Shown here: piece by piece, positions 1 to 45,272 of the stretch
Numbering within the stretch: the stretch's first letter is position 1
How the letters are laid out: every line of letters starts with the position of its first letter
NCBI GenBank assembly: GCA_976226885.1
Contig: OZ320314.1
Span: forward strand, 37,014,001 to 37,078,000
Reading direction: 5' to 3'
DNA from: Iphione sp. A-MEVVRFRX5
Taxonomy: Eukaryota
Length of the DNA: 64,000 nt
The notes under the pieces: model-generated
Told to the model about the DNA's origin: nothing
The model's input: only the letters and a program-made list of their open reading frames with translations
Database searches by the model: none
Translations under genes and position numbers: made by a program

Positions 1-1
1 T

Positions 2-1279
2 GCACTGCCTGCTGCCTCAAAGGCTCTGTGGAGACAGTGGGACCGCCTCACTATAAGCGATGGGATCCTTCAGAGGAGATGGTATGGACTGGAAACTGGC
101 CCTTCTCGTCTCCAAACGATACTCCCAAGAAAGCGACGCCTGGAGGCTATACAAGAAGTGCACAGCGGACGCACGGGAGGACACCTTTCCGTGGACCGGA
201 CCACCTTCCTGGTGGCGTTAGCATACTACTGGCCAGGTATGCGAAAGGACGTAGAGGCATACTGTCGACGCTGCCACTGTGCACTGTTAAACAGCGATCC
301 CCAGAAACCACAGACTACATTAAGAACCTACCTGGTAGGAGAGCCCATGGAACGATGGTCGATGGATGTTGCTGGTCCACTCCCTGAGACTGCCCGGGGA
401 AATCGCTACGTGTTGATGGTGGGTGACCATTTCACCAAATGGTTGGAGGCGTTTGCGCTGCCGGACCAGAAGGCCTCCCGGGTGGCGACAGTTTTGGCTG
501 AAGAGGTCGTCGCCCGCTATGGGTGTTTCCTAGAGCTACATAGTGACCAAGGCACAAATTTCTGCAGTGAGGTACTTACCGCACTCTGCGACTTCCTTGA
601 CATTAAGAAGACACGCACCACTCCTAGGCACCCTCAAAGCGATGGCTTCATCGAGCGGAGTTTTCGCACCATGGGAAAGATGATTAAGGCCCACTGCTAT
701 GAAGTGGGAGACGAATGGGATGAAGCGCTACCCTACTTAATGATGGCATACCGAGCCTCGCCGCAAGCCAGCACCGGGTACACACCCAACTTTCTAATGT
801 TCGGGCGGGAGGTGGTGCTCCCAGTGCACGCGTTCGCGGGATTCCCGCCTGCGGAGGGAGAGGAGAAGTCACTACCCCACCAGGTAGTGGATGTCGCGCG
901 ACGTCTACAGTCTGCTTATCGTGAAGTGCGGTGCCGCCTCGGCCGGGCCGCTAGAGTGCAGGCGAGAGCGTACGATCGTTGGGTGGAGAAGCGTCCGATG
1001 ACGGAAGGGGACGCTGTCTGGCTACACGAGGCCCAGCCCCCCAGGGGGAAGAGCCCGAAAGTGCATTTCCCATGGACGGGACCGTGGCTGGTAGTGAAGA
1101 AACTGGATGAAGAAAGGATAATCATCAAACGAGCGCGACAGGCGAAACCACGAGTAGTCCACCGGAATCGGGTGCGGACGTACCGGGGGGAGAGTATTCC
1201 CCGGTGGATGCTGGTATGGCGCAAACGCCAGGGAAGTATAGACCAGCCGACAAGGGAGGAAACGACCGCCAGGGGTTAG
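2..1279 (+). CDS. pol: pol C-terminus: integrase (HHCC zinc-binding, rve DDE core, GPY/F-like motif); open from the window edge
   Basis: Frame is open from base 2. HSGRTGGH...CRRC, WSMDVAGP, LHSDQGTNF, IERSFR and PWTGPWLVV are typical Gypsy integrase motifs. Confidence 0.95.
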   Translation, partial: ALPAASKALWRQWDRLTISDGILQRRWYGLETGPSRLQTILPRKRRLEAIQEVHSGRTGGHLSVDRTTFLVALAYYWPGMRKDVEAYCRRCHCALLNSDPQKPQTTLRTYLVGEPMERWSMDVAGPLPETARGNRYVLMVGDHFTKWLEAFALPDQKASRVATVLAEEVVARYGCFLELHSDQGTNFCSEVLTALCDFLDIKKTRTTPRHPQSDGFIERSFRTMGKMIKAHCYEVGDEWDEALPYLMMAYRASPQASTGYTPNFLMFGREVVLPVHAFAGFPPAEGEEKSLPHQVVDVARRLQSAYREVRCRLGRAARVQARAYDRWVEKRPMTEGDAVWLHEAQPPRGKSPKVHFPWTGPWLVVKKLDEERIIIKRARQAKPRVVHRNRVRTYRGESIPRWMLVWRKRQGSIDQPTREETTARG

Positions 1280-1633
1280 AGGACGGAGAGAGAACAAACT
1301 CCAGGAGCAGTCGAATAGCCCGGATGGAGAGGTGAAGTGGATGACCTGATGCTGACGTCAGCATAAAAGAATCCATGGGGAGGACAGATCTCCCGGCGGC
1401 ACTCAAAATCGACTCGTGAGGAGGACGGACCTCCTGGCCCCCTTTAGCGGGGCAAAAAGTCCGTGGGTGGGAGGTGGACCCCAGCCCCACATCGCGGAAA
1501 AAAATCCGGAATGAGCGAAGACGGTGGTATCGGGGGAAGTCCACGAGGGAGACGGGTTCCCTGAAGAGTGCGCGAAAAATCTGTGAAGGGCGACGGGCGC
1601 CCTGGACCTGCTAGGAGATGGAGTTGCGGGAAA

Positions 1634-1771
1634 GGCCAAGCTGGTGGATAGTCCTCTGGAAGGAGGCGTGGAGCCAGGCTGACTGATAGTCCTCTAGAAG
1701 AGGGTGGTGAAGCCAAGCTGGTAGAGTGTCCTCTCGATGAAGTCGAGGAGCCAAGCTGCCCAGCAATCCTC
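1634..1771. repeat. Tandem repeat, ~3.5 units of 38-39 bp
   Basis: Minus-strand units begin GAGGA and share CAGC(T/C)TGGC; unit lengths 38, 39, 38, then a partial unit. Confidence 0.8.
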
Positions 1772-1885
1772 TCGGGGAAGGCGGTGGTAGGAACTATTAC
1801 CAAGAAGGTGTTGATCAATAGTGTAGGAATGTACAAATTTTCCCCCGCCCAAGGAGATATAACAGATGAAGCTATGGATGAAACA

Positions 1886-1891
1886 TTTATT
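1886..1891 (-). terminator. Candidate poly(A) signal of the antisense accessory gene
   Basis: AATAAA on the minus strand ~75 nt after the TGA at 1967-1969. Confidence 0.5.
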
Positions 1892-1966
1892 ACAAGGAAA
1901 CAACGAACTAGGTTCAACAAATGTACAAGCTATTTACATCTGATCCAATCGGGCTGCCCGGATAAG

Positions 1967-2618
1967 TCACCAAGAGGCTCTACGGGGAGAGGCCTCATAA
2001 TCGTCGTCGTCCGATACTACAATGGGAAACCATGTATAGTCCCCGGGAAGGACGCCAGGATAGCAGGCCGCGAGCACATCCGGGGGCCAGGCGGCCAGAG
2101 AAGCCCGTCCGAGAAGAGGTCCCACCTCTGGGGAGGACATAGGAGTCGGACGTGAGGGGGTGTCCACCGGGGTACCCCAATCCATCGGCGAGGGCGATCG
2201 GGGACAGCTGGACGAGGAGAAGGACTCCCATGAATCCGATGACGTGGTGGAGGACCCCCATGAGACGGGGGACGGAGTGCGGAGGTAGTAGAGGGACCAG
2301 GAGTTCCCCTCACGGTCGTCCACACCCTGTTGGGGGGGAACGTCGAAGCTGCCCAAGTAGCGAGCTACCTCATCTACTCCCAGATCGGGCGAGATGGTGT
2401 CACACCGGGGCATCCAGGAAGGTACCGGGAGCGGGACAGGAGGCTCGATGGGCTGGATGGATATGTCGACATAATGAGATGGGCCAAATAGTCGAACTTG
2501 CCCTGGAGCCGGAATGTACAGTGGGCGATTGATCACAGGGTAAAGACCAAACACCCTGATGGTGGGGCCGGGAGTCCCGACATCCACATACCGTAGGAAA
2601 CTGTCTGGAGGAGGGGTG
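1967..2618 (-). CDS. Exon 2 of a predicted spliced antisense accessory gene (Pro/Ser-rich, acidic SIM-like C-terminus)
   Basis: Strong acceptor (T32 tract, then cttctcttcttcttcttgcag; AG at 2620-2619). Frame is open from the acceptor (TPPPDSFLRYVDVGTPG...) to TGA at 1969-1967 and ends ...WFPIVVSDDDDYEASPRRASW. Confidence 0.6.
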
Positions 2619-2639
2619 CTGCAAGAAGAAGAAGAGAAG

Positions 2640-2643
<4 letters not shown>

Positions 2644-2675
<32 letters not shown>
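2644..2675. repeat. A32 homopolymer (T32 on minus strand, inside the predicted antisense intron)
   Basis: Directly visible; lies ~25 nt upstream of the minus-strand acceptor. Confidence 0.95.
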
Positions 2676-2677
<2 letters not shown>

Positions 2678-2837
2678 TATGAAGATATCACAAACACTGT
2701 GCTGGGAAACTTACCTGCTGGAAGGATGAAGATGATCCAACCCTCAACAAGGAGGCCCAACTCAACAGCAAGTGATGAACTCGAGAACTGGCAACAACCA
2801 TTGTGGTGGAGGCCTCCCTTCTGCTCCGGAGACCTAC

Positions 2838-2926
2838 CTGGGTCCTGGAGGGAAACAGCAATCACTCCTCTCAGGCAAGTAAAGGCCATTGTGGGTGAGC
2901 CCAGTGATGTAGTTTGGCAACTCCAT
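2838..2926 (-). CDS. Exon 1 (coding part) of the predicted antisense accessory gene
   Basis: ATG at 2926 (catcATGG), MELPNYITGLTHNGLYLPERSDCCFPPGP, then a phase-2 donor AG/GTAGGT at 2838/2837 that joins exon 2 in frame (246 aa total). Confidence 0.55.
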
Positions 2927-2954
2927 GATGTGCACTGCAGGATGACTGGAGTCA

Positions 2955-2991
2955 GACTGACGCCGCACCCCCGGCCGCTACGGCTTATATA
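2955..2991 (-). promoter_or_regulatory. Core promoter (TATA + Inr) of the antisense accessory gene
   Basis: TATATAA at 2991-2985 and TCAGTC at 2960-2955 on the minus strand, ~33 nt apart, upstream of ATG 2926. Confidence 0.55.
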
Positions 2992-3007
2992 GCGACAGCG
3001 AAGGCTG

Positions 3008-3732
3008 TTCGTGGTACCGCGAAAGCTAGTTGCTGAGTCGCGGACCCACGAGCGGCGAAAACCGAACTCGTGGTGCCACGAGGAAAACATCGACAGCCGG
3101 GAGACAGGCCTAACAGGGAAAACATTGAGGAATTTGGTAATCTACGAATGAAAGGGGGTCGGGGTGCCACGAGGACAGCTCGGGGAGCCACGAGAGAGAT
3201 AAATGCTCGGGGTGCCACGAGTGGCTACACCAGAAGTGGGGAACCAAAACATCCGCCGAGCCTCGTTTGGACTACAGACGCCAGCTAGAAGCCGACAGCG
3301 GAGAGAGAAATTGGCAGCTCGTGCCCCCACGAGTACACTCCTCGAAATGAAGAGTTTACGAAGAAACAGCGAGAAGTAGATGGATTGAAAACACAATCTC
3401 GAGGAAGCAGTCGAAGTACAGTCGTGGTGCCCCGAGTGGAGTTCGTGACACCCCGAGCGTGATCCAGCTCGTGGTACCACGAATCAGAGACGTCGAGATC
3501 GACTGGATTCCACACCAAGTAGGTAGGGGCCCCCGAGTGTGACCAGAGGGGCGAGAGACTCTTTGCCCCCTCTGTTTTCTGCCACTGGGAAAAAGGGGGG
3601 GGTCTCCCCGAGTTGAATCAGAGGTTTCTCCCCGGTGTCAGTTTGTGGTGTTCATCGTGACACCCCGAGCGACAGGTGGGCCTGTGTCAGACGTGGTGCC
3701 CCGAGTGGGAGTGAGTCGGTGGTGCCGCGGGT
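3008..3732. promoter_or_regulatory. Array of >=11 copies of a 16-bp imperfect palindrome (NTCGTGG-NN-CCACGAG type)
   Basis: Copies start at 3008, 3037, 3067, 3158, 3179, 3206, 3318, 3421, 3442, 3468, 3654 and 3690, with degenerate copies near 3522, 3597 and 3717. Spacers are unrelated. Regulatory role is inferred. Confidence 0.75.
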
Positions 3733-3742
3733 CCCATCCAGA

Positions 3743-5512
3743 ATGCCTCGCAGGAAAATTGAAGGAGAGAAGGTAAAGAGGAGGGTTTTGCAGCCCGATG
3801 AACCTAAGCCCCCGGGGACCGTGTTGTGCGAACAGTGTGTGAAGCGACGCCCTTTTCGCCCTGGGGACTCTTTACAGCGCCATATCGAGGAAATCCATCT
3901 GGGGAAGAGGAAACGTGATATGAAATGTTTATTTTGTCCCAGTGTTATAGGTGACGAGCAGTCCTGGGTGGCTCACCAACGAAAATTTCATCCATGGGTG
4001 ACTGATATGGGACTGATTGAGCGACCATATAGGCGGTTATATGACGTGCGACCTGCCACGACAGGGGGTGTGACGGTACCTGACGACGAGATCACCCGGA
4101 TTGTCCTAAGGGCTAGGGAGTTGCGGTCACAAGGTTGGGCCCTAACGCAGGAGGAGGCAGAACATTTGTTGGCAGAGGAGCCCCACAGATCAGCACCTCC
4201 CCTTCCCTCACGGGTAGTTAGATGGGGGACACCGCCAGCCACACCGGCCACCAGGGGGGTCCCCACGATAGACCTCACCAGCCCCCGGAGTTCCCCGAAC
4301 ACCAGCACAGCTTCAGGGCGACAGGTCGTGGACCTCACCTCCCCTGGGGGGTCTCCCGAGTTTGGTGCAACCGCCGGAGTGGGTCCTGTCTGCCAGAAAC
4401 CAGGGGACACTCCCACACCAGGAATGCTACGGGCCGACACTCCAGGGTCCCACGCCGGGGAGCCAAAGGGGGGGGCTTGTGGAAGTCAGAGCGCATCCAT
4501 ACCACAGGATCCACAGGTGGGCGGCTTGGGAGTGACGAGGGCCCCCAGCAGGGGGCAGGGGGATCCTTTCCTCGGCCAAGGTAGTTTTGAGGGGGGGACC
4601 CCTCTCCACCAGGGGATTGCGGGGAGTGGCAGTGAAGCACCCTCCAGCTACCGCTCTGTGTCTGGTTGGCCCCTCACCCCACGGGAAGGCCCTGTGTCGT
4701 GGGATCTATCCGACGCCGCCTCGGTACTGGCTCGTCTCCAGGAGGTGACTGGCTCCGAGGCAGGGAGCCCCCGCCAGACTCCGGAGAGGCCCCCTGCCGT
4801 CTCCACGAGACTACCAGTGGGGCGGCTTTCTCGTCTCATCCAGTCCCTGTTGCCACCGGACCGGGCTGAGCCTGCGGCCGCTCGGGTACATAACATCCTG
4901 GATGGCTTGGTCTCGCCCCACCAGGCCACTACCCGTGCTCCTGCTTCACCCATGAAGATCCGGCTCCCCTCTCAGGTGGTATGGCCACCAAAAACCTGGG
5001 CTCAGCTGAGCCCCGCTAAACGTCTCATGGCCTGTATGGCCATGGCATGGGTCTTACATCTTGTCGAGGAGGAGGATACCGTGCCCGCTACCTTGCTGGG
5101 CCCGCTACAGTGGCGTCCGTATCTGATCCTCCCTGGGCTTGGCATCCCTGAGTTCGAGGACTGGGGGAATTTCGCTGGCCTACTCCATCAACATAACTGG
5201 ACTGTTGAGGCGGCCGAGACGCTCGTACGAGATCTCCAGCCTGGTCTTGCGTGGGATCCCGACTCCGCGATGAATGTTGAGAAGTGGGAGTGGGAAGCAG
5301 TCAACGCGGGGGCCTGCTATGCAGTGGCCCGACCCACCCTAGTCGACATATGCCGGAATGCTCCGGGTAGACAGCGCCGTCTGGGGGAGCAAGACATCTG
5401 GGCGAGTGGTAGCGCCCCAGGTAATGGTACAGGTCCTTTGAGAACACCCAGGCCCTCTGATGTAAGGGAGCTGGAAAAGTCCGGCCCCTCAGTTTGTCAG
5501 AAAGAGCAGTAA
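3743..5512 (+). CDS. Accessory ORF (589 aa from first ATG): two C2H2 zinc fingers, two SIM-like motifs, Pro/Ser/Gly-rich middle, W-rich C-terminal region
   Basis: Uninterrupted ORF; CEQC-x14-HIEEIH and CLFC-x12-HQRKFH; TIDLTSP and VVDLTSP. The ORF track start at 3635 is a GTG; the first ATG is 3743. Confidence 0.8.
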   Translation: MPRRKIEGEKVKRRVLQPDEPKPPGTVLCEQCVKRRPFRPGDSLQRHIEEIHLGKRKRDMKCLFCPSVIGDEQSWVAHQRKFHPWVTDMGLIERPYRRLYDVRPATTGGVTVPDDEITRIVLRARELRSQGWALTQEEAEHLLAEEPHRSAPPLPSRVVRWGTPPATPATRGVPTIDLTSPRSSPNTSTASGRQVVDLTSPGGSPEFGATAGVGPVCQKPGDTPTPGMLRADTPGSHAGEPKGGACGSQSASIPQDPQVGGLGVTRAPSRGQGDPFLGQGSFEGGTPLHQGIAGSGSEAPSSYRSVSGWPLTPREGPVSWDLSDAASVLARLQEVTGSEAGSPRQTPERPPAVSTRLPVGRLSRLIQSLLPPDRAEPAAARVHNILDGLVSPHQATTRAPASPMKIRLPSQVVWPPKTWAQLSPAKRLMACMAMAWVLHLVEEEDTVPATLLGPLQWRPYLILPGLGIPEFEDWGNFAGLLHQHNWTVEAAETLVRDLQPGLAWDPDSAMNVEKWEWEAVNAGACYAVARPTLVDICRNAPGRQRRLGEQDIWASGSAPGNGTGPLRTPRPSDVRELEKSGPSVCQKEQ

Positions 5513-5667
5513 AATTTTGGGTAAAATTTCTTACCTAGTCCATACCTGCTAGCTATGGATGTGGCGTGGTTAGATTGTTGCTGGTGAGTGATCCCTTACC
5601 GTCTGGTAGGGGACCAAGCACCTGACTCAAGGAACCAGAACCACTAGGGACTGTTAATGAGAAGTTA

Positions 5668-6527
5668 GTTACCTTCATTGCTATCTGTGATTAATCGTAT
5701 GCTGTGTGGTAGTAAGTGCACCACGATTGCCATGTCCGGTTAGGACTGCTAAAGATTGTTATCAATGTCACAAGCACTCTATTTGTTACCTTGACCGATT
5801 GCTTCCTCAGATGTTTACGGATTCCTGTTAATGGTGTTTCAAATCAAGTTACCTTGTCTATGCCCTTAAGAGGGTTAGCTGAGTTAGTAAAATGTCTGAA
5901 GGGAAAATTGTATTTCCCCCAAAAAATATAAAAGGTCACTTGGTGAGACTGTTGCTGATGCCATGAGCGCCACACCCGTTACCTTGATCCAACGTTTACC
6001 CAAGATGTTTGTGACTGATTACTGCTGTTAAATATTCGAATCAAGTTACGAAAAGTTGGACGGTTAGAGAAAAGGATCTAGAAGGGAAACTGTATTCCCA
6101 CAAAAAGAAAAGGAAGCTTGCTGTCTGTGATTATTGATCCACCTAACCAGGATAAGTATTTACGTAAGGTTACTGACTGTGATTGAGGATTTTATTGCTA
6201 AGTGTTGAGATTTGTTGATCAGCTGTTGCTCAGGAGAGTTGGACTTGTTACCTTGATTGGCTGTTTACATAGATAGATTAGCCTAGTCCTAAGTCAACTA
6301 CTCTAGGTTGTTATCTTTGCCGTCGGATTGTGTGAGACCAGGGCCACTGTGTACAGTTGGCCACCTAGATTGCTACTGATAATTACTAGAATGAGACATG
6401 GGACCGAGTATATGGCCCAGACAGGTTAGAGTCAGAAGTTGAGAGAAACTAAGAAGGGAAGCTGTATTCCCCCAAAAAGAAAAGACTGTTATTTGTGATA
6501 AGGATTTCTCAGAAGAACTTGTTACCT
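5668..6527. repeat. Dispersed short motifs in the pre-PPT spacer (GTTACCT x6; GAAGGGAA-n-TTCCC-AAAAA x3)
   Basis: GTTACCT at 5668, 5785, 5848, 5978, 6247, 6521; the ~27-bp module at 5898, 6081, 6453. Confidence 0.8.
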
Positions 6528-6651
6528 GTTGGCTACCTGTGATTACCCTATTGGTTACTTAGATGTATGTTACCATGATTGGTTGTTTACCTGAGATAGA
6601 TTTTAGATGACACTAGTTACCCATGCTCATTTTGAGGCGTTGGCATGTTTT

Positions 6652-6664
6652 AAGAAGGGGAGAG
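6652..6664 (+). other. Polypurine tract (PPT)
   Basis: AAGAAGGGGAGAG directly before the TG of the LTR. Confidence 0.85.
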
Positions 6665-7550
6665 TGTAGGGGTGTTCGTGGTACCACCAGCGTAAGGCTA
6701 AGTAAGTCTATTGTATCATATGACGGTTCGTGGTACCACCAGCGTAAGGCTAAGCAAGCCTATTGTATCTTGTAATGGTTCGTGGTACCACCAGTGTAAG
6801 GCTAAGTAAGTCTATCGACAGTTCGTGGCACCACGAGTGTAAGGCTAAGTAAGTCTATTGTATCATATGACGGTTCGTGGTACCACCAGCGTAAGGCTAA
6901 GTAAGTATATCAACAGTTCGTGGCACCACGAGTGATGTGGGATGTACTAGCTGACCTCAGGGAGCCCGTTCGTGGCACCACAAGTGGTTTGTATGCTAAA
7001 AATTTATATCCAGGGTCCCTGGGTAATTAGAAGGTCACCTTGGACCCTGGGGATCCAGGTCATTGCTACTTTGTAACTAGACAGCTATGAGCTGGGTTCC
7101 CTGAACCCTGGGGATCCAGGTCATTGCTACTTTGCATCTAAACAGCTAAGAGCTGATTGGTAGACAGTAATAACACAAGTCAGTTTGTAACCATTTTATT
7201 CCATCATGTGATACATTGTTGCTATGGCAAGTGAACACCTGGTCTTGAGGATTACTATAAATATGGGCCCTGTGTGGCAAATAAACCAGTCTGTACTTGG
7301 ATACCGTTGTGGAACTTGTCTCTTCAGGGGAGTCATTAGGAACACATACCCACTTGGAGTACCATAAGGGAATACTTACCCGATAGTTCTACATTGTGAG
7401 GATCAGGAACAACTAGCCAGGATATATCCACACATAGCTGGAGTTACTTAGAGGAAATATTAACACAGAAGTTACACTGGATTAATTCATTTAGGACTAG
7501 ACACACTATAGTTGGAGTTACCAAGTGGGAGTACAACCACGCTTACTACA
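6665..7550 (+). repeat. 3' LTR (right end either 7393 or 7550)
   Basis: Starts TGTAG; TATAAA 7256-7261, AATAAA 7280-7285; CTACA at 7389-7393 and 7546-7550. The second LTR is not in the window, so the end cannot be confirmed. Confidence 0.75.
6675..6984. repeat. U3 tandem array (52/43-bp periods) carrying 7 copies of TTCGTGG(T/C)ACCAC(C/G/A)AG
   Basis: Copies start at 6675, 6727, 6779, 6822, 6874, 6917, 6969; most are followed by GTAAGGCTAAG. Confidence 0.9.
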
Positions 7551-8287
7551 GTAACGACAATGGACTCCAGTGCATGTAGTCTTTATATTGTTTTCCCTCC
7601 CTCCACTATACTGAGTCCCCTCACTCTTTAGATAAACCCTCCGAAATTCTATACTCTGCTAATCTTCCCTCTGCTAAACTACCCTCCACCCAACAATATA
7701 TCCTCTTCTGGCGAGTTTCATATCAGATGTCCTGAAGTCTAAACTGGCATACCGGAGCATGTATTTAGATTGATTAGATGTCTGCCTGTGACATAATTAT
7801 GGATATTCTCTCATCATTCTGAGATGAAATCATCGAACATGAGACGGCATGTTTACTAGATTGGGGTTAGTCTTTTGCTATTTTCACTTACTGTCCGTGC
7901 AGTGTGGTTGGCAGCATATATCTAGGAACGAAAGAACTTGGATATCGCAATTCTTGTAAACTCTCATTTAAAGGCCAGATTACAGGGGAAACCAGATCAC
8001 GACACACACAGGATTTTGACAGTACCAAACATCTACATGTATTTCTTTATATGATGAGACAAAAGAGGGGACCAGGCTGCAACAGAGACCAAATTTCTCC
8101 AGTCCCAGAGATGGTCCTCTAAGCAAGAGTTTACTGTACCTGCAAAAACAAGTACATGTATGTGAAAAAGGCTGAATGAACACAAGATTTACAAATAACA
8201 TGAAGTGAAGCAGCTTTTACTGAACTTTTTGAGCACGTGGAGGCTACATAAAATAAATAATCTTCTACCCTCAATGTATAAATGATA

Positions 8288-8438
8288 CACGGTAGAACCC
8301 TTCATTACAGACAACCCTCTAATCAGGACATTCTACATTATGGATAGGCTGGAAGTATATTTAAATACTTCTGCTATTAAAGACACTTCATTTTTAGGAC
8401 AGTTTATGGTCAGTCCCTTTGGTCTCTGTACCACTGTA
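8288..8438. mobile_element. Possible Tigger/pogo-type MITE remnant
   Basis: Begins CACGGTAGAACCC... and ends ...CCACTGTA, resembling CAGT...ACTG/TA termini; degenerate. Confidence 0.3.
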
Positions 8439-8589
8439 TAGATATTCTAGAGATTGATGGATGTTCAACTTATAATGTAGAATCAAGCAAACTGCAAATT
8501 GGAAACAATGGTATATTGGACCATAGAATTCTAATGAGCATACTACAGGGAATGTCTTTGGTGAAGAAACGAATTTAATGGGCAGCATC

Positions 8590-9600
8590 TTACTTAAGCA
8601 ATCAAAAACAATTTGTTCGTTGTAATGAATGTTCATCTGAAATCAAATCTGTATGAAAGTGGGGGGGGGGGGGCTGTAGCACAGCGTAGTATTCCTGGTC
8701 CCTGGCGTTTTTCCTTAATGGTGAACGATATTCCAAAGCATTTGTCGATCACAAAATGTATACTATATGCTAATGATACCACTATCTCTGTTTCGGCTAG
8801 TAATGTAATGGCTTTCCAATTGAAAATGCAATGGGGGGGAGTGGGAGATAAAGATATAACAGCCTCGTGTAATAAAACGGATTTAAGATAAACACTAACA
8901 AGACTGTGGTTATGGCGTTTGTTAGAAGTAGAGATGTCATACTCGATCTTTAAATCAATGGTAACCAGAACAAGAAGGTGAGGACAACAAATTTCTTAGA
9001 TATGCTATTGATAGTGGCTTATCCTGGCTGCCACATATTCAAGCTATGAGAAGAGAATCAAGAAAGAGGGTGCACGGAATCACGAGAGTAACTCAGCTTT
9101 TACCATTTGTTACAAGAGTTAGTGTCTTCAATGACTTTGTTAATCCGATCTTTTTATATGGACTTCCCTTTGTGTTGCGGGCATCCAGAAGGCTCTTTTT
9201 CCATTGCAAATCAAGCAAAAAAACGCCCTAAAAAAGTTCTTTCGCCAAACATGAGAGACCTAATGTCATCCATTCAACTAAGGAGGAGGTTGAATATTAA
9301 ATCACTTTTAAGCAAGTGGGAGAAAATGGTTCAATTAATTCAATACATCGACTTGTTATGTTGAATGAATGTAGGGTACAGAATAAAGGAAGAAGAAGAA
9401 GGAGGCAGGTGGCCTGGATCGCCCAAGACAAGCCTAGATTGTCTAAGGTGAAGAACATCTTCTATTACACATGAGCTAAGATGTGGAAAGCGCTTCTGAA
9501 AGGACTGAAGAAGTGTATTGATAAGAAGATGTTCCTGAAACAAGTGAAGAGACTAAGCTGATCTAACTGACGCCATATATTAACATCGCATAATTGGATT
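8590..9600 (+). pseudogene. Decayed LINE reverse transcriptase fragment
   Basis: GVAQRSIPGPWRFSLMVNDIP...CILYANDT matches the GVPQGS.LGP..F..Y.ND and YADD motifs; multiple stops and frameshifts. Confidence 0.75.
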
Positions 9601-10524
9601 TTTTCCTCGTAAATCATTTACTTTTTTTCAGTTCGCTGGAAAACCTCGGGTGTAATTCCTGAGAATGTGAATGAAACGTTTAGCGTTCAATGTTCAATGT
9701 ACTAGGTCATCTGAGACACAACTAGAAGAAAATTTCAAGTGCTTAAATGGACCATTTGTATCAGACACAGTTCATTGAAATACATGCATGTTAGCTACAT
9801 ACATCAAAGAAAGGAATCATGAACCTTGAGGATATTCATAGAGAACGTCTGAATCCAACATCAGGAATTCTGTCAGTTATGTATACGATGCTTCAAACAG
9901 ACTTTGCTGAAAATGCTGTGGACCCTGACATGGTTCTGACTGATGATATGTTGACAAATCCTGGATTTTTGACGACAGCTTAGCTTTTGTTAACTACAAT
10001 GTGAAGAATGAAAGTGTCGATCGACGTGGGGCATGATTGCCTACATGAATTCATCAGTCTTGAAGAGATAAATGCAAGAGAAAACCACCACAAAGAGAAG
10101 AGACTGAAACAGAAGGCTACCAGAAGAGAGGTTTGAAAATAAATCACATATATATTAAACCCTATACTTCAGGAAAGCCTAAAGTTCAAAATTTAAATTT
10201 CATACCTAATAAATCGGCAACCTCCAAGACATTCGTTAAGCTAGGAGAGAACATAGCTTGTATGATATCTTGTGTTATTATGAAAATATTAATGAGGTAT
10301 TTGTGAAGTCACCCTGCTTGAAATTTAGCATCATTCCTTTACAAACCATGGCATATATATGGATCCAGTTGCGAAGTCTCGAACATGAATCTGAATCAAC
10401 ATGGTCAAAAGTAGTTTACGGACATTATTTGTAACTTGGCAATTGCAAACATAAGATTCAAAACTTGGATCCAGTTGGAACCAATGTACATAGAAACATG
10501 GCTGATTAAACAGAATATAATGTT

Positions 10525-10680
10525 CAGTAGAACCTCTATTTGCAACCGCTCCTATTTGCTACCATTCTCCTTATTACGACCACCTGAGATTGGCACAAAG
10601 GTCTGGACTTCTTATAATAAATATACCCAAGTTGCGACCAGATTCGCCAATACGACCACATTTGACGGGGTCCCACTGTA
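10525..10680. mobile_element. Possible Tigger/pogo-type MITE remnant
   Basis: Starts CAGTAGAACCTC, has internal CGACCA repeats, ends CCCACTG followed by TA. Confidence 0.4.
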
Positions 10681-12437
10681 GTTGTTAACCTCCCTAGTCT
10701 AGACTTTTAGAAATAGTGATAATATCTATTCATAAAGTGATAATATCTATTCATTTTGTGTTTCTGACTGTATGAATATATAGAGCTACATTGGTCTTAA
10801 CTTGTTTGCATACCTAACCGTTCGTACCACCATTATTGTGCATACACTTCAATACTATGAAGTCTTTCGGTAAGGCATAGGCCCTTTACTACCGGACGGA
10901 TGGGTTGGATCCCAACCACCACAAACAGAGTAATAAAGTACAACCAGGCAGATATACAGTAATCTAAAATCGATAACGAGTGTTCTTTATGCTGGACAGG
11001 CAGACAGATCATAGGATTATCCATGTTATTGAACAATCTAGAGACAATAAGCTTTTCAGAGACAGAGCCAGACAGACAGAGACAGTTGGAGACGTACAAA
11101 AAGGTTTATTTCTCAGCCAAGGCTACATTGATTGTGATTTATAATTGACCATAGCCATTATAAAATTGATTTATTATTGACCATAATCATTATCTAGACC
11201 TTTTCCCCAGCTCTTCGATAACGCACGCAATTCTGAGCGGTATATCAAAAAGCCTATCTAGGCCTAGGCTTACGTAACCATAAGATAAACACGAACATAC
11301 ATGGTCATCTATGCATTTTTTCCGGAAGAATTTTATCGCGACGATCGGCTAATATAGTTATATACACTAGAGAGTAGACTATCTTGACTCTTATATGAAT
11401 ATTCATGACATTGGCGCACAATCGTAGGCACATGTACATATATACATGTACATAGAAAATATATAATTAGACTACGGTTACAATGGACAATGGGCGTGCA
11501 AACCTAAACTTGGGAAGCTTTATCAGTCAATAAAACATGAATTTATGTTTAAGTTAAGAAATACAGGTAATTGTGTATTAGCTAGAAAGTACCAGCATTA
11601 TAGATCGAGAGTGATGGTAAATGAATACAACAAAGGTTTTCAATTAGACACATTTATTAATGAATAGAGGCATAATTCAATTCAATTCAATTCAATTCTG
11701 TTTATTGACCTTCTTTGTACATGTTACAAAGTTATCCGTGGACAATTGGTGAGTTTAATGAAATAAAACATAAAAAAAGAGAATAGGCATGACAATAGAT
11801 CAATTGCTTAATAAACACTACTCTTCACCCTTTGTGTTTGTCTCATTATCAAATACCTCCAGTAAACTGACTCATTTCATAAGTTGACATATTCAATAGA
11901 AGACTGACAGTGTCTACTAGTGCACTATGAACAAACAAACCACTCATGCTAGCAGAACCTGCATATTGTTATATGTGGTGCCTTATTTACTCTGCATGAA
12001 AATACGTCATTGGATAAATAGAATACATGTATCCGAGAAAGCATGTTCATCCATCACTTATATCACGTTCGTTCTTTCATTCCTCCACACACATCTAACC
12101 AGTAATACCATATCAAGCAATGCACTCCACATTCACCAACCACACCCATCCCATTTTATATCTGCATGCATCCTCATTCACGACTCATTCACGACAGTTC
12201 CTAGTGATAAGTTCGCATTTACACTTGTTTCTTTCTTATACTTCCACACTCTACCACTCAGTCACTAGGTGCGACATACACCGCCCCAGTTAACAGTCTT
12301 AGACTCAGGTGTTTCGAAGCTAATTTGGAACTTCCATATGTGCGAACCCTTACCCTCCCCACGTCGATTTCCCATTTCCATCATTGTCTATGGTCCAATC
12401 ATTCCGTTGTCAGTAGCACGGGAAGTTGCATGCCAAC

Positions 12438-14366
12438 CTAATTGGGCTTGAGTTGGAATTTTGTCAGGCGGGCTGCCCTTTTTCTGACATCCGGTAAGTC
12501 ATTCCACCCCACTGCCGCTCTGTACCTTAGGCTGCGGCCAAATGCCCTGTTCTTTGGCCGATCCACCCTGATTCTGGCCGAATGTCCTCTTCTCGTTTTA
12601 GATGAGTCAGCTAGTGGCAGCAGCCCTAGTCTGACTTGCTGGTGAGTGGCTCGCAAGGCCCTCCAACCCACCAGATCCTCCACCCTTTCTATACCACCTT
12701 TCTCACAAATACGTTTGGCGGACCATGGTGGGTTTATCTGCAGACACATCCTAACGCACCGATTAAGATGTAGCTGCATGTTGCATAACACCGCCTTGGA
12801 ACAGCTGTAAAGCACTACTGCGGCATAGTGCAGATGCGGCATTACAAGTGTTTTAAATAGGTATAACACCGTATGCCATGGCAGCATTTTCTTCACTCTG
12901 GACACTTTCAGCGATGCCGCCCACATTTTGCCTTTCACGTCCTTTAGCATCTCGCGCCCTGTCATCTTGGCATCCAACAGATAACCAAGAAGCCGCACTT
13001 TTGTGCACATTGTGAGGTCTGTCCCATTTACTTTGAGGTCTAATGGTGTACCAGCCGCTTTGCCCAGCGGCATGTAACAGCACTTGCCTTCTGACAGTAG
13101 TAGGCCGTGTTCGTGACACCATTTCGACACTCGGTCCACGCTGTGTTGACATGCCCCTCTTAGCCTAAGCCAGTCATTTGCTTTGACAATTATGGACAAA
13201 TCATCAGCGTAGAGGACGGCATCACAGTAGTTTGGCATGTGCTTGACCAATTCGTCAATCACTATGCTGAAGGCCGCAGGGCCAAATACTGATCCCTGCG
13301 GCACTCCATGCTCGATTTTCCTCAGTGAGGAATTCTGTCCATAGCACCTTACGTACTGTTTTCGATTGTCCAGGTAACTATGAACCAGTCGTCGTATGGC
13401 GCCACTTGCCCCTGCTGTCTCCAGCCTTCTGAGAACCTCCACTGATGGAATGAGGTCAAATGCTTTTCGCATGTCAAAGGCTAAGAGACAACAGTATAAT
13501 CCTGAGTTCATAGTTTCCATTGCTCTATTGATTGTGTAGGTAACGGCTGTCTCTGTGCTTCTCTGGGGTCTGAAGCCATGTTGTCTATCGCTAATGAACT
13601 TTTGCTTGTCAAGCTGTTGCATGACATCAGCAAAGAAACATTTCTCAAAGACTTTCCCGGGTAATGGCAAGATAGACACGGGTCTGTAGTTGCTCATACA
13701 GTTTGTGTCACCACGTTTGTGGAGTGGTGTCACCCATGCTATCTTCCACTTCCCCGGGTACTGTCCACTTTGTATGATGCGGTCGAAGATCCAATGCAGA
13801 AAGTCGAGGTTCAGGAGCAAAAGTTGCTTCATCACCCTTGTCGGTATACCTTCTACACCTGAAGCTTTTTTGATGTTGATTGTTTTGACGAAGGTCCGCA
13901 GTTCCGAAGGAGGCGGCAGAGTGACATCAAACGTAGAAGCACAGCTTGTCACCTGAACATCACCCCTGGCGGTCACCGGCGGTGCTAGGGCTGCTACCTC
14001 ATCAATAAAGAAGTTATTCAACTTCTCCGCGACTGACTCTTCGTGACCATCTCCGGGGTTGTTCTCCTTTGGCAGTTTCATCTGACCTTTGCCGCGCCCC
14101 AGCGCCTTGTTAAGTACCTCCCATGTTTTGGATGAATTCCCCTTCGTCTCCTGCAGTTTCAGCTTCCAGAAGTCCCGCCTGTCGTTTAGCAGTGTGCGTG
14201 CCACCTGTTTATTGAGGTGCTTGAAGATTCGAAATGAATCCACGCACCCATACTTTTTCCATTTTGCGAAAAAGTATTTCTTATCCTTGATCAACTCTAG
14301 TGTCGCATCACTAGGCCGAAACCCGTTGATCCCCTCCTTGACTTTAGTGGTTTTCTCAGGGCACAT
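12438..14366 (-). CDS. LINE ORF2, reverse transcriptase portion
   Basis: YRPVSILP, QHGFRPQRST, FDMRKAFD, GVPQGSVFGP, YADD motifs. Confidence 0.92.
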   Translation of the reverse strand: MCPEKTTKVKEGINGFRPSDATLELIKDKKYFFAKWKKYGCVDSFRIFKHLNKQVARTLLNDRRDFWKLKLQETKGNSSKTWEVLNKALGRGKGQMKLPKENNPGDGHEESVAEKLNNFFIDEVAALAPPVTARGDVQVTSCASTFDVTLPPPSELRTFVKTINIKKASGVEGIPTRVMKQLLLLNLDFLHWIFDRIIQSGQYPGKWKIAWVTPLHKRGDTNCMSNYRPVSILPLPGKVFEKCFFADVMQQLDKQKFISDRQHGFRPQRSTETAVTYTINRAMETMNSGLYCCLLAFDMRKAFDLIPSVEVLRRLETAGASGAIRRLVHSYLDNRKQYVRCYGQNSSLRKIEHGVPQGSVFGPAAFSIVIDELVKHMPNYCDAVLYADDLSIIVKANDWLRLRGACQHSVDRVSKWCHEHGLLLSEGKCCYMPLGKAAGTPLDLKVNGTDLTMCTKVRLLGYLLDAKMTGREMLKDVKGKMWAASLKVSRVKKMLPWHTVLYLFKTLVMPHLHYAAVVLYSCSKAVLCNMQLHLNRCVRMCLQINPPWSAKRICEKGGIERVEDLVGWRALRATHQQVRLGLLPLADSSKTRRGHSARIRVDRPKNRAFGRSLRYRAAVGWNDLPDVRKRAARLTKFQLKPN

Positions 14367-15201
14367 TTCTCCTAGGACTATCCTGGTGCAATTCTCCAGA
14401 TGTTCCCATGATTTCTCGTGGTCCGGGTCCTTTTTCGAAACCGCCCATCTCCAAAACTTCTCTTTGAAGTGCGGCGAGGTCCAGTTTGTTCCACTGTCTA
14501 AATGTCTTCACTTTGTCCACCAGACGATTGCCCCCTTTCTTCAGCACTGCCAGCACTGGTAGGTGATCACTGAGTGTCCAATCCAGAACGTCGCAGGCCA
14601 ATCTGCCTGCGTAATTGACCCATATTTGGTCAATCACGCGGTCAGAGTCTAGCGTAGTACCCTTCCTGATCAGCTGAGTGAATCCATTGCTGACAAGCAG
14701 ATCCACTAGACTGACCCCAGCCTTTTCTCCTCCCATGAAGTTGAAGTTGAAATATCCAGCTATAGTCACGTCGCATCTGTGTAAGGTTTTGATAAGTTGG
14801 ATAGTTTTATCAAATTCCTTGATACTATCCTTGATTCGATCATGTGGTGGCCGATACACACCAAACACTGCATGTTTTCTTCTCTTGCTGATTTTCAGCA
14901 AGACCCCCAGGAATTCACTCTCACCATGTTCCGGGCTTGTGCAAAATTCCCGTATAATGTCAATGGTTTTTTTCAGATAGATCACAATCCCCCCACCCTT
15001 GGACTTCTTTGCATTCTGTCTATCTTGTCTTACCTGTTGGTAACCCGGAACTTTAATCCCCCCATCTAGATGTGACTCATTGAGCCATGACTCCGTGATT
15101 ATACAGATGTCTACGTCTTGTTCACGGAGACATATCTCCAGGGCGTCTACCTTAGAACGTAGACTTCTTATGTTATATGCAACCAATGTTACTCCTTTCA
15201 T
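14356..15201 (-). CDS. LINE ORF2, APE endonuclease portion (separated from RT by a 1-nt frameshift near 14431-14435)
   Basis: AYNIRSL, ITESWL, GGGIVIY, GVYRPP, IDQIW, SDHLPV. Removing one A from GAAAAAG restores ...EKDPDHEKSWEHLENCTRIVLGEMCPE. Confidence 0.88.
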   Translation of the reverse strand: MKGVTLVAYNIRSLRSKVDALEICLREQDVDICIITESWLNESHLDGGIKVPGYQQVRQDRQNAKKSKGGGIVIYLKKTIDIIREFCTSPEHGESEFLGVLLKISKRRKHAVFGVYRPPHDRIKDSIKEFDKTIQLIKTLHRCDVTIAGYFNFNFMGGEKAGVSLVDLLVSNGFTQLIRKGTTLDSDRVIDQIWVNYAGRLACDVLDWTLSDHLPVLAVLKKGGNRLVDKVKTFRQWNKLDLAALQREVLEMGGFEKGPGPREIMGTSGELHQDSPRRNVP

Positions 15202-15874
15202 TATGTTAAGGTTGTGTAAGCACCCCCGAGCTCACTGCCATATACATGTTACACCTCATCACACAACCACACCCACTTTCATCACACATCTTGTACTCAC
15301 TTTCAGCCTTGCAGAGTCATAGTTGTCTTATTGACATACACCTGCACCTCCATCTACAAATTGTAGTCACCAGCAAAGCATACACTGTGACATCCATACC
15401 ACACCAAGCGGCGATGTAAGTGGTGCATTAATAAAAAGAACTTTATTCACTTTAGACTATAGAGTGGAGACAATCACTGGACCTAGAACGACATGAAGGA
15501 ACCGCACGTAAGTTGTAAGTATGGCCTTAGCAAATGTAGTCACAAGGTTATAAATTGCGTGGTTCAACTGGAATATTACAGCATGTAACTAGCAAGGTCA
15601 GTGATATTACAACACAACTATAGTTAACTATTTCAGAAATAACCAGTATTCTAAAGATCACCAGCTACCAGTTCAATCTCGATTATTGTCATTACCCATG
15701 GCCTATGATCATGGTAGAATAACCTGACTACCTCAACAGCGTGTTTGGATTGAGATCAGTTACTAAGTGCATATACAATGTACTAAGAACGACCGAAGGC
15801 ATAAATAATCAACAATTACAATAAATAGTAACAGATAAATACAAAAACATACATATACCAGGAATTTAAGAATT

Positions 15875-17413
15875 TTAAGACTTCTTGAAAAATGTGTCTA
15901 TGGTTGGCTGGACCACCTTTCTTGATAGAACTCTGGAGGAGTGGGCCTGCTGTAGTGGTACCAACAGATCCAAACATTCAATGTCGCCTTTGATGAGGAA
16001 ATGCTTCCTCATTTTCAAGAACATTTCCTGAATCTCTGGGTCACTGAGCTCACTGCCCTCTTCCTGTTTCTCCTCTGTCGGCTCTTCCTCCTCTTCCTCA
16101 ACCTCATCAGGGGCCCAATCTTCCTCATCGGGACTGTGAGTGCAGAGTTCATCATCAAGGCTCTCATACTCTGTGTGGGTCATTCTGGATTCCTCTGGGA
16201 TGCCCTCCTGGATTTTTGTGAGGAGGGAGATGAGAGGTTCATCATCAAGTTCAGGAGGACACGACACACGTTCAGCATCATCAGGAACTGGCCTAACCCC
16301 TGATCTTATGAAGCATGACTCCACTGTGGTTGGTTTTACTGCTTTTACTGCAGAATTCAACCAGCCCACTACCAGCTGCATATCCACTGTGCCCACAGCA
16401 GCCCTGGCGTCGATGGAACCATCCAGCCTTGAAACGACGTACTGTAGCAGTGATTTCTTGTAGTGTAATTTTACTGCCTGGATGATGCCCTGGTCTAATG
16501 GCTGGAGAACAGATGTGGCATTTAGTGGCAGAAACACAACTTTAGTGTTAGACAGGTTGATTCCCCCAGGATGAGAAGGGGCATTTATTAAGCACACTTT
16601 TCTCCCTTGAGCTGCCATTTTCCGATTGAAAGAGTGTAGCCACTCCTCGAAAATGGTCGTTGTCATCCATGCTTTCTTGTTATGGCGCCATGTCACGGGC
16701 AGCGATGACATATCCTTCAGATTGCGCCAACAGCGAGGTCGTGCAGCTTTGCCAATAACCAATGTCTTCTGAAACTCACCAAGGGCATTCACACAGAACA
16801 TCGCTGTGATCTGCTCCTTGGATTTTTTACTGGCAGAGACGTCTGTACCCCTGACACTCAAAGTCCTATCTGGTAATGCCCTGTAAAAGATGCCGGATTC
16901 ATCGACATTAAAAATGTCTCTTGGACCATATCCCTCGAGGATGGTGGGTAGACGCTCCAGCCATTCTTGAACTGTGACTTCATCAACTGATGATTTCTCA
17001 CCAACCACCTTGAATGCTCCAATACAGTGACGTTTTTTGAATTTCGTGAGCCATCCTGTAGATCCCTTGAAGTCATCCATACCAAGCTCTTTGGCTATAG
17101 CCAAGGCCCTGGTACAGAGCATAGGCCCTGAAACCGGTACATTCAAAGCACGAATCCGAGAAAACCATGAAAAAACTCTCTCATCGAGTGTAGAGGAGTT
17201 TGTGGAGAGGCAACGACGCTTTGCTGTTGGATCAGCACAGTGCTCAAAGTCATTCAGAATTTCTGCTTTTCTCTTCAAGATGCAGCCGACTTGAGTTTTC
17301 CCCACTCCGAATTGCTCTGCAAGCTGTCTCAAGCTACGACTTGGACTGTTCTTGATAATCTGAACCTTCTCACGAAGAGTCAGATCTCTCCTCTTGGTCT
17401 TGGTCACAGGCAT
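15875..17413 (-). CDS. pogo/Tigger (CENP-B-like) transposase, 512 aa from ATG 17413
   Basis: N-terminal HTH (LTLREKVQII...LAEQFGVGKTQV), second HTH (FKGSTGWLTKFKKRH), DDE-type core (IFNVDESG, WMTT, LQPLDQGII), acidic tail, C-terminal QPTIDTFF. Confidence 0.92.
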   Translation of the reverse strand: MPVTKTKRRDLTLREKVQIIKNSPSRSLRQLAEQFGVGKTQVGCILKRKAEILNDFEHCADPTAKRRCLSTNSSTLDERVFSWFSRIRALNVPVSGPMLCTRALAIAKELGMDDFKGSTGWLTKFKKRHCIGAFKVVGEKSSVDEVTVQEWLERLPTILEGYGPRDIFNVDESGIFYRALPDRTLSVRGTDVSASKKSKEQITAMFCVNALGEFQKTLVIGKAARPRCWRNLKDMSSLPVTWRHNKKAWMTTTIFEEWLHSFNRKMAAQGRKVCLINAPSHPGGINLSNTKVVFLPLNATSVLQPLDQGIIQAVKLHYKKSLLQYVVSRLDGSIDARAAVGTVDMQLVVGWLNSAVKAVKPTTVESCFIRSGVRPVPDDAERVSCPPELDDEPLISLLTKIQEGIPEESRMTHTEYESLDDELCTHSPDEEDWAPDEVEEEEEEPTEEKQEEGSELSDPEIQEMFLKMRKHFLIKGDIECLDLLVPLQQAHSSRVLSRKVVQPTIDTFFKKS

Positions 17414-17745
17414 GTTGTCGTTTCTGCATTCGTCTTGAGAATGATTCCCTCCAGTACAGACGCCTGCTTTTGTATGCTCCTGGAGGCTCCCCAAGTGAGT
17501 AGGCGTCAATTGCAATCAGGAACATGTGAGAACATCAGAGGCATTCAACTCCCTTTGACCCTTTGAGTCGCTCAAAGGTGATGAATATAACCGTTAGTCT
17601 ACGCTAAATCAAAGCGACACCTGCTCTTTGGGGGCCTCGGGGATGCTGATAGGTGTAAAATTTGCGCGGCCAACTGAAAACTTATTTGTCTTCACCCGGG
17701 GGGTGCGCTACTGTCGCCGTCCACAGGCAGACGTTCTCTAAAATT

Positions 17746-17874: not shown

Positions 17875-19131
17875 TAGACATGATATATTTTTTTGCTCAA
17901 ACTGTATTTGTTTCGTTCAGGCATTCAGGGTTGTGTTGTATTCTTATGATGATGGACTTGCGATTGTATTTTCTTGGGTTTTCATCAGTTCCTCCAAGCT
18001 TGTATTCCTAATGAGTTGCTTTTGCTTGAAATCTCTCCAACCTGGAGACCTCTTCACCGTAATTAACGACTATTAGGAAAAGGATAAAGTAACCATCCTT
18101 CTTAAAACAAGTTTTATTTCCTAGTTGAGAAGTTCATAGACCTTTCAAAGCCGCAGAGGCCGGGCGTTTCTACATGGGAGCTCTCTAATAGAAGAAATTT
18201 TATTTCATCACTGTAGCCTGCCCACCAACCTCTCACTAGTAGACCTCGCAACGCAAGGATCCTGTCTTTCTGTTTCTCTATCACTATTACTGAAGCATAC
18301 ATCCACCACAAGACCAACCCAGTTAAGAGAGCAACCTTTGATACACATAACGATCTAAACAGAAGCAAACACTAACATCCACATTATTTTACCAACATTC
18401 TAAGGAGATTAATTCAAGAGAGCCCCACATTGGCTTGTCCCAAGGGTTGAAAGAACGTATAAGTACTGTGCTATTTAAAACAATGGAATAGTATTGGGAG
18501 AGAATACGAAAATGAAGGCCGAAATATTAAAGTTTTGCTCAGTAGATAATATATGATAAAGTTTGACAAACATGCATGTTGGGGCATAGATAAACATTTA
18601 ACTGAACTAAGATGTTTGCAAGTACTTTTCTGAAATGTTGCAGATCCACACTTATTTGTGTGTTTGTATAAACCTGGGCCTACAGGTGAAGGGCTGGGTG
18701 TGCTGGATGATGTTTGCTGACTCATCTCCTGAAATGTCATATATGACATCACTTAGGGTTTCCTCTTTCATATCTTTATCTTGCGAATGATGCACCGACA
18801 TGTTTTCCCACAGGTAATACACCATGTCAGAAAACGGTCCTAAGAAGGACAACTTTTGTTTTGGTGGTACCAGATAATTTCAGTACATTTTCTCTAGTGT
18901 CAGTTTCATTCGAATTTTTGGCAAGGTTTATCAAATCAATATAAGTCGACTTTATGGTGAGATAAAAGATTATATGGATCTTTAAAGCATCTCTCATCTC
19001 TATTTAGAACCCATGTTATAGGGATACGTATAATTTAATTGAAAAAGTACCTAGAATACATTACACCAGCAAGGGTGAGTTGCTAGCATAACAACATACT
19101 GTATAAACTGCAAGGAGGGTATAGAACGAAT

Positions 19132-27343: not shown

Positions 27344-27656
27344 GGCAACTTACTTACTCACTGACCGTGGTTTGTATTGTGACTAACGGGCACAACTGAC
27401 TAACCAGTGCTGGCTTGGTAAATACAGGTAAAACTTCTGTCTAGCTGTTTTAACAGGGAATAATAATCGTGGAACCCTCTCTCAGGGTGGCAGTTACACA
27501 GTAGAGTTACTCTTCTCGGGATAGGAGCTGGGTTGAGCACATGGCATGGCTTCTGGCTTCAGGCCCTCTGCCACACAACAGCCTTTCCTCACTCTCTTAA
27601 CAGAAGAAATAGAAAAAGCTTCCTACTCACAGTTTCTTCATGCCCTTCCCAGTCCT

Positions 27657-40772: not shown

Positions 40773-40802
40773 CTTCGTTTCGTTTATATGGTAGACTTCC
40801 AT
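40773..40802 (-). CDS. Micro-exon 7 of repeat peptide precursor: DGSLPYKRNE
   Basis: tttcag|ATGGAAGTCTACCATATAAACGAAACGAAG|gtgagg; 30 nt, phase 1-1. Confidence 0.85.
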
Positions 40803-41522: not shown

Positions 41523-41552
41523 CTTCATTTCTTCTGTATGGAATATGCCCAT
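41523..41552 (-). CDS. Micro-exon 6: DGHIPYRRNE
   Basis: cttccag|ATGGGCATATTCCATACAGAAGAAATGAAG|gtaaag; 30 nt, phase 1-1. Confidence 0.85.
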
Positions 41553-45242: not shown

Positions 45243-45272
45243 CTTCGTTTCTCTTGTATGGCGTTTGGCTCT
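45243..45272 (-). CDS. Micro-exon 5: ESQTPYKRNE
   Basis: ctttccag|AGAGCCAAACGCCATACAAGAGAAACGAAG|gtaaga; 30 nt, phase 1-1. Confidence 0.85.

Follow-up and report, generated by a model that had tools for sequence, protein, structure and literature searches.

The Ty3/Gypsy element at the start of the window (the whole 64-kb stretch of DNA that was analysed) carries, between pol and an inferred 3' LTR, an intact reading frame of 589 amino acids that encodes two tandem C2H2 zinc fingers and is, with high confidence, a maintained accessory gene other than env. From the layout of the protein the first-pass annotation had proposed a nuclear DNA-binding regulator. We infer such a role as well, with a palindrome common to the region upstream of the ORF and to the LTR as the candidate target. 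That the ORF encodes the element's own DNA-binding autoregulator, acting on the internal site and on the LTR, is given a little better than even chances.

The element and its accessory reading frame

The animal DNA of the window is rich in AT (GC mostly 32-40%) and contains several mobile elements; bases 1-6000 form an island of high GC (51-64%). By its sequence this island is identified as the 3' portion of a Ty3/Gypsy LTR retrotransposon, with the order integrase, 2.46-kb spacer, 589-aa ORF, 1.15-kb 3' region, polypurine tract (PPT) and inferred LTR. The remaining pol and the 5' end of the element precede base 1, and no further pieces or copies of the element were found elsewhere in the 64 kb. 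The features are as follows.

2-1279, plus strand: 3' end of pol with Ty3/Gypsy integrase (zinc-binding domain, rve core and C-terminal domain), from Pfam, homologues and trees
3009-3704, no strand: 12 clustered palindrome copies, the last of them 38 nt short of the ATG; candidate internal operator/promoter
3589-3601, plus strand: internal polypurine tract GAAAAAGGGGGGG, possible central PPT, from sequence only
3743-5512, plus strand: accessory ORF of 589 aa, with ATG at 3743, TAA ending at 5512 and no internal stop
3827-3991, plus strand: tandem C2H2 fingers, aa 29-83, from motif, phmmer and profile comparisons
4265-4339, plus strand: two SIM-like motifs, TIDLT and VVDLT, with SP after each, in the disordered region, from a pattern match
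4817-5377, plus strand: predicted helical, Trp-rich C-terminal block including a WPP motif, of no known family or fold
6652-6664, plus strand: PPT directly abutting the LTR, from the sequence
6665-7393, plus strand: inferred 3' LTR with the ends TGTAG...CTACA, from its TG...CA ends and the adjoining PPT
6676-6983, no strand: cluster of seven palindrome copies in U3, most of them inside a 43-52 bp tandem array
7256, plus strand: TATAAATA in the inferred LTR, from the sequence
7280, plus strand: AATAAA in the inferred LTR, from the sequence

The integrase matches Integrase_H2C2 (1e-16), rve (1e-13) and, weakly, Integrase_p58_C in Pfam, followed by the stop at 1279, and its named homologues are Gypsy integrases. 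In the closest family the domain order is RT_RNaseH followed by integrase (P0010); the RT part of the window element itself precedes base 1. The limits of the LTR are inferred because the 5' LTR falls outside the window. The spacer between pol and the ORF contains a pure poly(A) run of 32 nt (2644-2675), not preceded by AATAAA, and a 38-bp unit present three times (1635-1758), which opens a 167-codon frame without a Pfam match. The other frames in 1280-3742 gave no Pfam family and no meaningful match to the related ORF family described below (family B). In the 3' region a second motif, GTTAC(C/G), has nine copies (5668-6621), and there are degenerate repeats, among them a GGGAA...TTCCC hairpin with A-rich bases after it (6080, 6452); motif, repeats and hairpin are possible RNA signals.

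The rest of the window holds other mobile elements. On the minus strand there are a non-LTR retrotransposon whose endonuclease and reverse transcriptase occupy two frames (12438-15231), an open pogo/Tigger-type transposase frame (15875-17515; CENP-B_N, HTH_Tnp_Tc5, DDE_1) and pieces of gag, protease, RT and RNase H that belong to a second Gypsy-type element, which is broken (24367-27349). The plus strand has one more fragment of a reverse transcriptase (19087-20313), and two related MITE-like elements have 35-nt terminal inverted repeats (29761-30931 and 43295-43651). Six exon-like units of about 32 nt each, between AG and GT, occur on the minus strand at 40765-50100, every one encoding a repeat of the type D-x-x-x-[PS]-Y-[KR]-R-[ND]-E; they are read as a host gene with repeated micro-exons.

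The accessory ORF is in the position of env, between the end of the integrase and the PPT and LTR, and is free of stops, both as claimed in the first-pass annotation. Its frame is already open from 3617. In 500 dinucleotide shuffles of the stretch 3601-5520 no ORF reached 589 aa (mean longest 177, maximum 381), which argues against a chance GC-rich open frame.

Two C2H2 motifs, at aa 29-52 and 62-83, are joined by a basic linker of 9 aa. They follow the pattern C-x2-C...H-x4-H with the hydrophobic core positions present; finger 1 has an insertion of two residues, and in finger 2 Trp replaces Leu at a hydrophobic position. The best Pfam match of the fingers, zf-C2H2_4, is below the cut-off (E 0.48). 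A phmmer search against 1.84 billion proteins gave five matches, all multi-C2H2 proteins and all to aa 14-90 (best E 2.5e-6), and the finger pair scored 27.4 bits against a profile built from the finger pairs of related elements. The two fingers of the first-pass annotation are borne out by these matches, and the rest of the layout described there was recovered as well: a basic N-terminus with 8 K/R within aa 1-28, a region (aa 151-360) in which P, S, G and T make up 51%, and a C-terminal part (aa 361-545) with 9 of the 16 Trp of the protein.

An envelope protein had already been doubted on the basis of layout, and rightly so. The highest 19-residue hydropathy is 1.07 in the window ORF (P0001), in which the N-terminal windows are negative, and 1.03 in P0129 of family B; the hydropathy scan revealed no signal peptide or transmembrane helix in either protein. 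The sole R-x-[KR]-R site is at aa 543 and is followed by a polar tail, without a hydrophobic or fusion peptide. Since signal peptide and transmembrane segment are absent the env identity is rejected. A diverged env or small fusogen, against which the zinc fingers and basic stretch at the N-terminus also count, retains next to no probability.

Outside the fingers the window ORF had no detectable relative by direct search (word search, phmmer, atlas, PDB and PHROGs). The word-indexed homologue search with the whole ORF gave no match among 8000 candidates, atlas searches with aa 395-560 and with P0129 gave nothing usable, and the PHROGs search gave no match. A PDB sequence match to a 6-4 photolyase (E 0.044) was taken as chance, and matches to CTCF fingers (E at least 0.09) and to one unrelated chain (E 0.79) were taken as chance or generic finger matches. 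AlphaFold2 models had a mean pLDDT of 37.5 for the window ORF (single sequence) and 35.7 for P0129 (30 rows), and Foldseek gave nothing at E 0.001 or better with them; the models therefore carry no information on the fold. The lack of a significant full-length homologue by word search and atlas, and by phmmer beyond the fingers, speaks for a passenger without a role for the element, either a captured host zinc-finger fragment or the chance frame considered above. There are no introns in the ORF and no named host gene was matched, which speaks against capture, and the relatives of the element bear on the same question.

Related reading frames in the integrase clade

Family B was reached through the integrase. 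Among the 120 integrase homologues listed of 297 found, P0036 is a shortened integrase fused in frame to a tail, which is faintly like the WPP/C-terminal block of the window ORF (E 0.064). Searching with this tail gave the 78 proteins of family B, all from ENA, with P0129 (921 aa, 427 members) as the largest cluster. An N-terminal C2H2 pair was predicted for P0129 before inspection and is present, with a 9-residue basic linker and the Trp of finger 2 as in the window. The pair is found in 12 of the 78 proteins, most of the others being shorter fragments. The label 'C2H2 Zn-finger protein' given to P0016 by JGI was rejected, as this is an integrase match without a finger pattern.

The fingers of the window and of family B align with an hhalign E of 2.4e-4 (probability 43%). 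Ranked among 1834 decoys, the window ORF came third with the finger profile, first with the C-terminal profile and second with the WPP profile, and was unranked with the middle helix. Block by block the similarity is weak (E 0.9-1.6 among the same decoys), a point in favour of a passenger. With finger and C-terminal profiles in order the window ORF reached 14.3 bits; the best of the decoys after it had 4.7, and no score above 1.6 arose in 1000 shuffles. The score of the window ORF is partly circular in that the C-terminal block, though not the fingers, guided the choice of family B.

In-frame fusions with pol before the ORF were found in three proteins (P0036, P0191 and P0194). The integrase of P0036 is 99% identical to that of P0008, so the ORF sits downstream of the family-B pol. 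The window integrase, the family-B integrases, P0007 and P0051 form one clade (SH-aLRT 100, in a quick tree of 70 of the 121 rows). When 13 diverged members of family B are compared with P0129, leaving out three near-identical and three rearranged members, identity is 74-91% in the C-terminal block and 42-69% in the linker next to it; this contrast suggests constraint at the protein level.

A scan of GTDB contigs with the integrase alignment gave 40 loci (L001-L040), of which 38 were analysed, 28 of them with at least 1 kb available after the integrase. All 40 sit in bacterial or archaeal assemblies, and their Gypsy content led us to take them as eukaryotic DNA in those bins. A tandem C2H2 pair was found downstream of the integrase on the same strand in five of the 38 loci (L001, L007, L013, L014 and L018) and on the opposite strand in none. 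Pairs alone were counted, since the single-finger pattern proved to be noise, matching in 4 additional loci on the plus and 7 on the minus strand. In L010 a 250-aa frame opens with one clear finger followed by a degenerate one, and the single finger of L025 resembles the second finger of L014. The finger ORFs of the related loci extend into low-complexity sequence. Those of L007, L010 and L014 end in stretches that, judged by eye, are coiled-coil-like, which would fit dimerisation; L010 and L014 also gave HALZ/bZIP matches below the threshold.

Single loci show further peculiarities. The finger ORF of L007 (3055-4065) has a SIM-like stretch and a CtBP-binding-like PLDLR motif, together a hint of a repressor, and tandem GCGGGATT repeats follow downstream. 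In L001 (2193-5373) the finger ORF overlaps a 735-codon frame in a different frame; the two may be one broken long ORF. L008, outside the finger clade, has a different sense frame of 285 codons after the integrase (5921-6775), without a Pfam match.

In L018 the finger ORF (1087-2124) continues the integrase frame without a stop, with an ATG of its own before the basic stretch. This would suit fingers that serve integration, as a detached or read-through extension of the integrase that tethers the pre-integration complex or binds the cDNA ends, and so would the start of the U3 palindromes (see below) 12 nt from the LTR end. Against this, none of the other five long finger ORFs is joined to pol, the window ORF begins 2.46 kb beyond the pol stop with its own ATG, and the internal palindrome cluster would be left without a role; a function in integration is thus highly improbable.

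In a quick tree of 40 integrases all eight finger-labelled rows fall within one clade of 22 rows (SH-aLRT 94); mussels, a brittle star, a crab and fish are the sources of named sequences in the same clade. Eleven of the 12 finger-less rows are outside the clade, and L022 is inside it without an ORF. The finger label requires two changes on the tree, against 6.5 when shuffled (0 of 500 as few), a result that means clustering only, as kin share labels and the query favoured the clade. Generic multi-finger proteins match the lineage profile as well as the window pair does, so the profile makes no case for a single origin of the finger ORFs.

Taken together, the distribution indicates that the accessory gene is a lineage-level trait of an animal Ty3/Gypsy clade. 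The first-pass annotation had named a captured host gene fragment, found in this copy only, as what would overturn its view; this objection fails, because related elements carry a like ORF. The recurrence of the layout across one integrase clade and the domain-wise constraint in family B, added to the shuffling result, make a passenger very improbable indeed.

Palindrome clusters and proposed regulation

The palindrome TCGTGG-NN-CCACGA, with at most two mismatches, has 19 copies in the 64 kb, 12 before the ORF and seven in U3; it is absent from pol, from the ORF itself, from the 3' region and from the flanks. From shuffles 0.07 copies are expected in the upstream cluster and 0.005 in U3, where the palindromes lie 270-580 bp upstream of the TATA-like box. 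The CpG observed/expected ratio of the upstream cluster is 0.91, a value partly built into the motif itself, against 0.38-0.67 in the other non-pol segments measured. An unbiased shared-word test of the whole spacer against the whole downstream region picks CCACGA (12 and 10 copies) with a score of 7.2, which exceeds the null maximum of 2.2 and was reached in none of 200 shuffles. Just ahead of the upstream cluster, TTATATAG at 2985-2992 is a candidate internal TATA box. Downstream of it, in the 750 nt before the ORF's own ATG, there are four other ATGs; the AG directly preceding the ORF ATG (3731-3742) is a candidate splice acceptor. A bacterial promoter scan was discarded as not applicable to eukaryote DNA.

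The shared-word test was also run on eight region pairs from seven other elements. In L001 ACTCGG is common to the pol-ORF spacer (4 copies) and the downstream/LTR region (6 copies), with none of 200 shuffles as good, but L001 did not stand out by a cruder count statistic (46 of 200), which did mark an AT-rich word in L014. No shared motif was found in L007, L010, L013, L014, L018 and L025 (15 to 200 of 200 shuffles as good), mostly elements with spacers of 150-400 nt or partial LTRs. L005, a relative without the ORF, also has LTR-side tandem arrays.

The region 2990-3745 folds as RNA far better than shuffles (z -4.6, 0 of 20 as good). This fits a Rev/CERV-like or Tat-like regulator that would act on the RNA structure of the palindromes in export, stability or packaging, and C2H2 fingers are able to bind RNA, as in TFIIIA. 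The fold is not independent evidence, however, because strong folding is expected of any series of palindromic repeats; the U3 array is not distinguished from shuffles in its folding (z -0.8), and Rfam gave no match in 1-12000. In the 5' LTR, U3 is untranscribed promoter DNA, and the U3 copies lie upstream of the start site. The unfolded U3 array and its position outside the transcript fit a role of the palindrome at the DNA level. A precedent for an RNA regulator is Cer1 CERV, the product of a Gypsy env-position ORF, which in the available text of its description is nuclear and needed for export of the genomic RNA (PMC10309623). An RNA regulator is on balance improbable for the window element.

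The zinc-finger recognition code, as set out in the accessible part of its description (PMC12264921), yields for this pair a CG core only, from Asp-7 of finger 2 and Arg-1 of finger 1. Adding Asp-5 gives CGnnG, which is present in 30 of the 38 half-sites but also in 8% of random 7-mers, and position -5 generally does not set specificity according to the same text (PMC12264921). The fit of the finger pair to the palindrome under this code is weak.

Finger 2 has few of the classic base-contact residues, and the best Pfam matches of the family-B fingers, below the cut-off, are zf-Di19 and CEP104_ZnF, fingers of a kind that need not bind DNA. Both observations favour a nuclear factor acting through protein contacts, a decoy or antagonist of SUMO-dependent silencing with Di19-like fingers, the palindromes then being enhancers for host factors. 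As such sites the palindrome would offer CCACG bZIP half-sites or CACGAG bHLH boxes. The absence of the shared motif in most relatives tested points the same way, as do the two SIM-like motifs of the window ORF. At least two such motifs occurred in 1 of 20000 shuffles, with a pattern that had been widened after the sequence was seen; the TIDLT and VVDLT copies may stem from one duplication. They resemble the VDLT cores of SIM2 and SIM3 of RNF4 as given in the available text (PMC3901395). Such motifs are not general in the relatives, with one candidate in L007, none at five other loci and a drifting hydrophobic core in family B, and a host enhancer alone leaves the massing of the word before the ORF unexplained. 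A factor working through protein contacts is considered unlikely, if less so than an RNA regulator.

The autoregulator reading would work as follows. The ORF would be expressed from a sub-genomic RNA, via an internal start or splicing, and the basic linker or N-terminus would take the protein into the nucleus. A finger pair reads about 6 bp, which is the length of the TCGTGG half-site, and the spacing is fixed at 2 bp, so the palindrome suits a dimer. If the C-terminal block mediates dimerisation, the protein could occupy both halves of the 14-bp palindrome. By binding in U3 as well as at the internal cluster, it would couple its own synthesis to genomic transcription, and the disordered region with the SIM-like motifs may recruit or displace SUMO-linked chromatin factors. 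Activation or anti-silencing is modestly favoured over repression. A wider claim, that a broad env-less animal Gypsy clade encodes a fast-evolving C2H2 factor together with a family-specific operator in the LTR and at an internal promoter, as a 'complex' retrotransposon with an autoregulatory or anti-silencing circuit like that of Tas or VANC, is put forward tentatively, at somewhat less than even chances.

Significance and comparison with known systems

It is commonly assumed that LTR retrotransposons rely on transcription factors of the host, and C2H2 fingers have mostly been seen as a host weapon against them. If the autoregulator reading is true, transposons use C2H2 fingers for themselves and are not merely their targets, and retroviral transactivators and the anti-silencing proteins of plants would have a counterpart among invertebrates. 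The finger protein and its candidate operator occur in one element, which makes self-regulation of a retrotransposon directly testable. Similar unannotated finger proteins occur in mollusc gene sets; in annotation such ORFs may pass for host zinc-finger genes or be mislabelled as env-like.

Titles and the openings of abstracts gave no report of a C2H2 extra ORF or a self-binding factor of a Gypsy element; Repbase, Dfam, GyDB, supplements or subscription journals may contain mentions of such ORFs. Surveys that cover molluscs, annelids and the env-bearing Gypsy elements of metazoans do not contain the word 'zinc' in their available text (PMC13524379, PMC6238403, PMC8556966, PMC8220671). That ORF3 need not be env is stated in the accessible part of one report (PMC5718144). 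In the available texts ORF3 of rotifer LTR elements encodes env, a GDSL esterase or a DEDDy exonuclease (PMC5408684), and plant elements have additional ORFs, such as gene23 of Grande and those of Retand, the nuclear ones being antisense (PMC7264820). Unlike the window ORF, none of these is described there as a C2H2 protein.

The nearest counterpart in position is CERV of the C. elegans Ty3/Gypsy element Cer1, likewise a non-env ORF at the env position of an animal Gypsy element. The available text describes a nuclear protein with an NLS and a possible zinc-binding loop (PMC10309623). In contrast to the window ORF, CERV is spliced to gag exons, has a C4-type loop and no tandem C2H2 pair, acts in RNA export and is restricted to nematodes, as far as the same text goes.

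By analogy, the best reading of the proposed autoregulator is that it works like foamy-virus Tas or plant VANC. Tas (Bel1) is also encoded by the element 3' of pol, and has a single DNA target that is present both in the LTR and at an internal site ahead of its own gene, positions for which the window element offers candidates; it binds LTR and internal promoter as a dimer according to the accessible text (PMC4929722). Tas belongs to an env-bearing vertebrate retrovirus, whereas the window element is an env-less Gypsy element with a C2H2 pair; no match to Tas was found by sequence or fold (Pfam, phmmer, PDB and Foldseek), and there is no env in the element. VANC of the Arabidopsis VANDAL elements is a self-encoded accessory protein combined with dense, tandem-expanded motifs in non-coding parts of the element; in the available text VANC21 binds such short motifs in its own transposon, and relatives have different motifs (PMC5735166). 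The motifs of VANDALs, which are DNA transposons of plants, run in one orientation and are not palindromic, the window element is an LTR retrotransposon, and no match to VANC was found (Pfam, phmmer and PDB). Anti-silencing is proven for VANC in that text and is proposed for the window element by analogy. VANC induces loss of DNA methylation on its own element; on this point the window element offers no more than the CpG ratio of 0.91 in the upstream cluster. Non-env ORFs in this position were thus already known, and what is new here is the palindrome common to the region upstream of the ORF and to U3.
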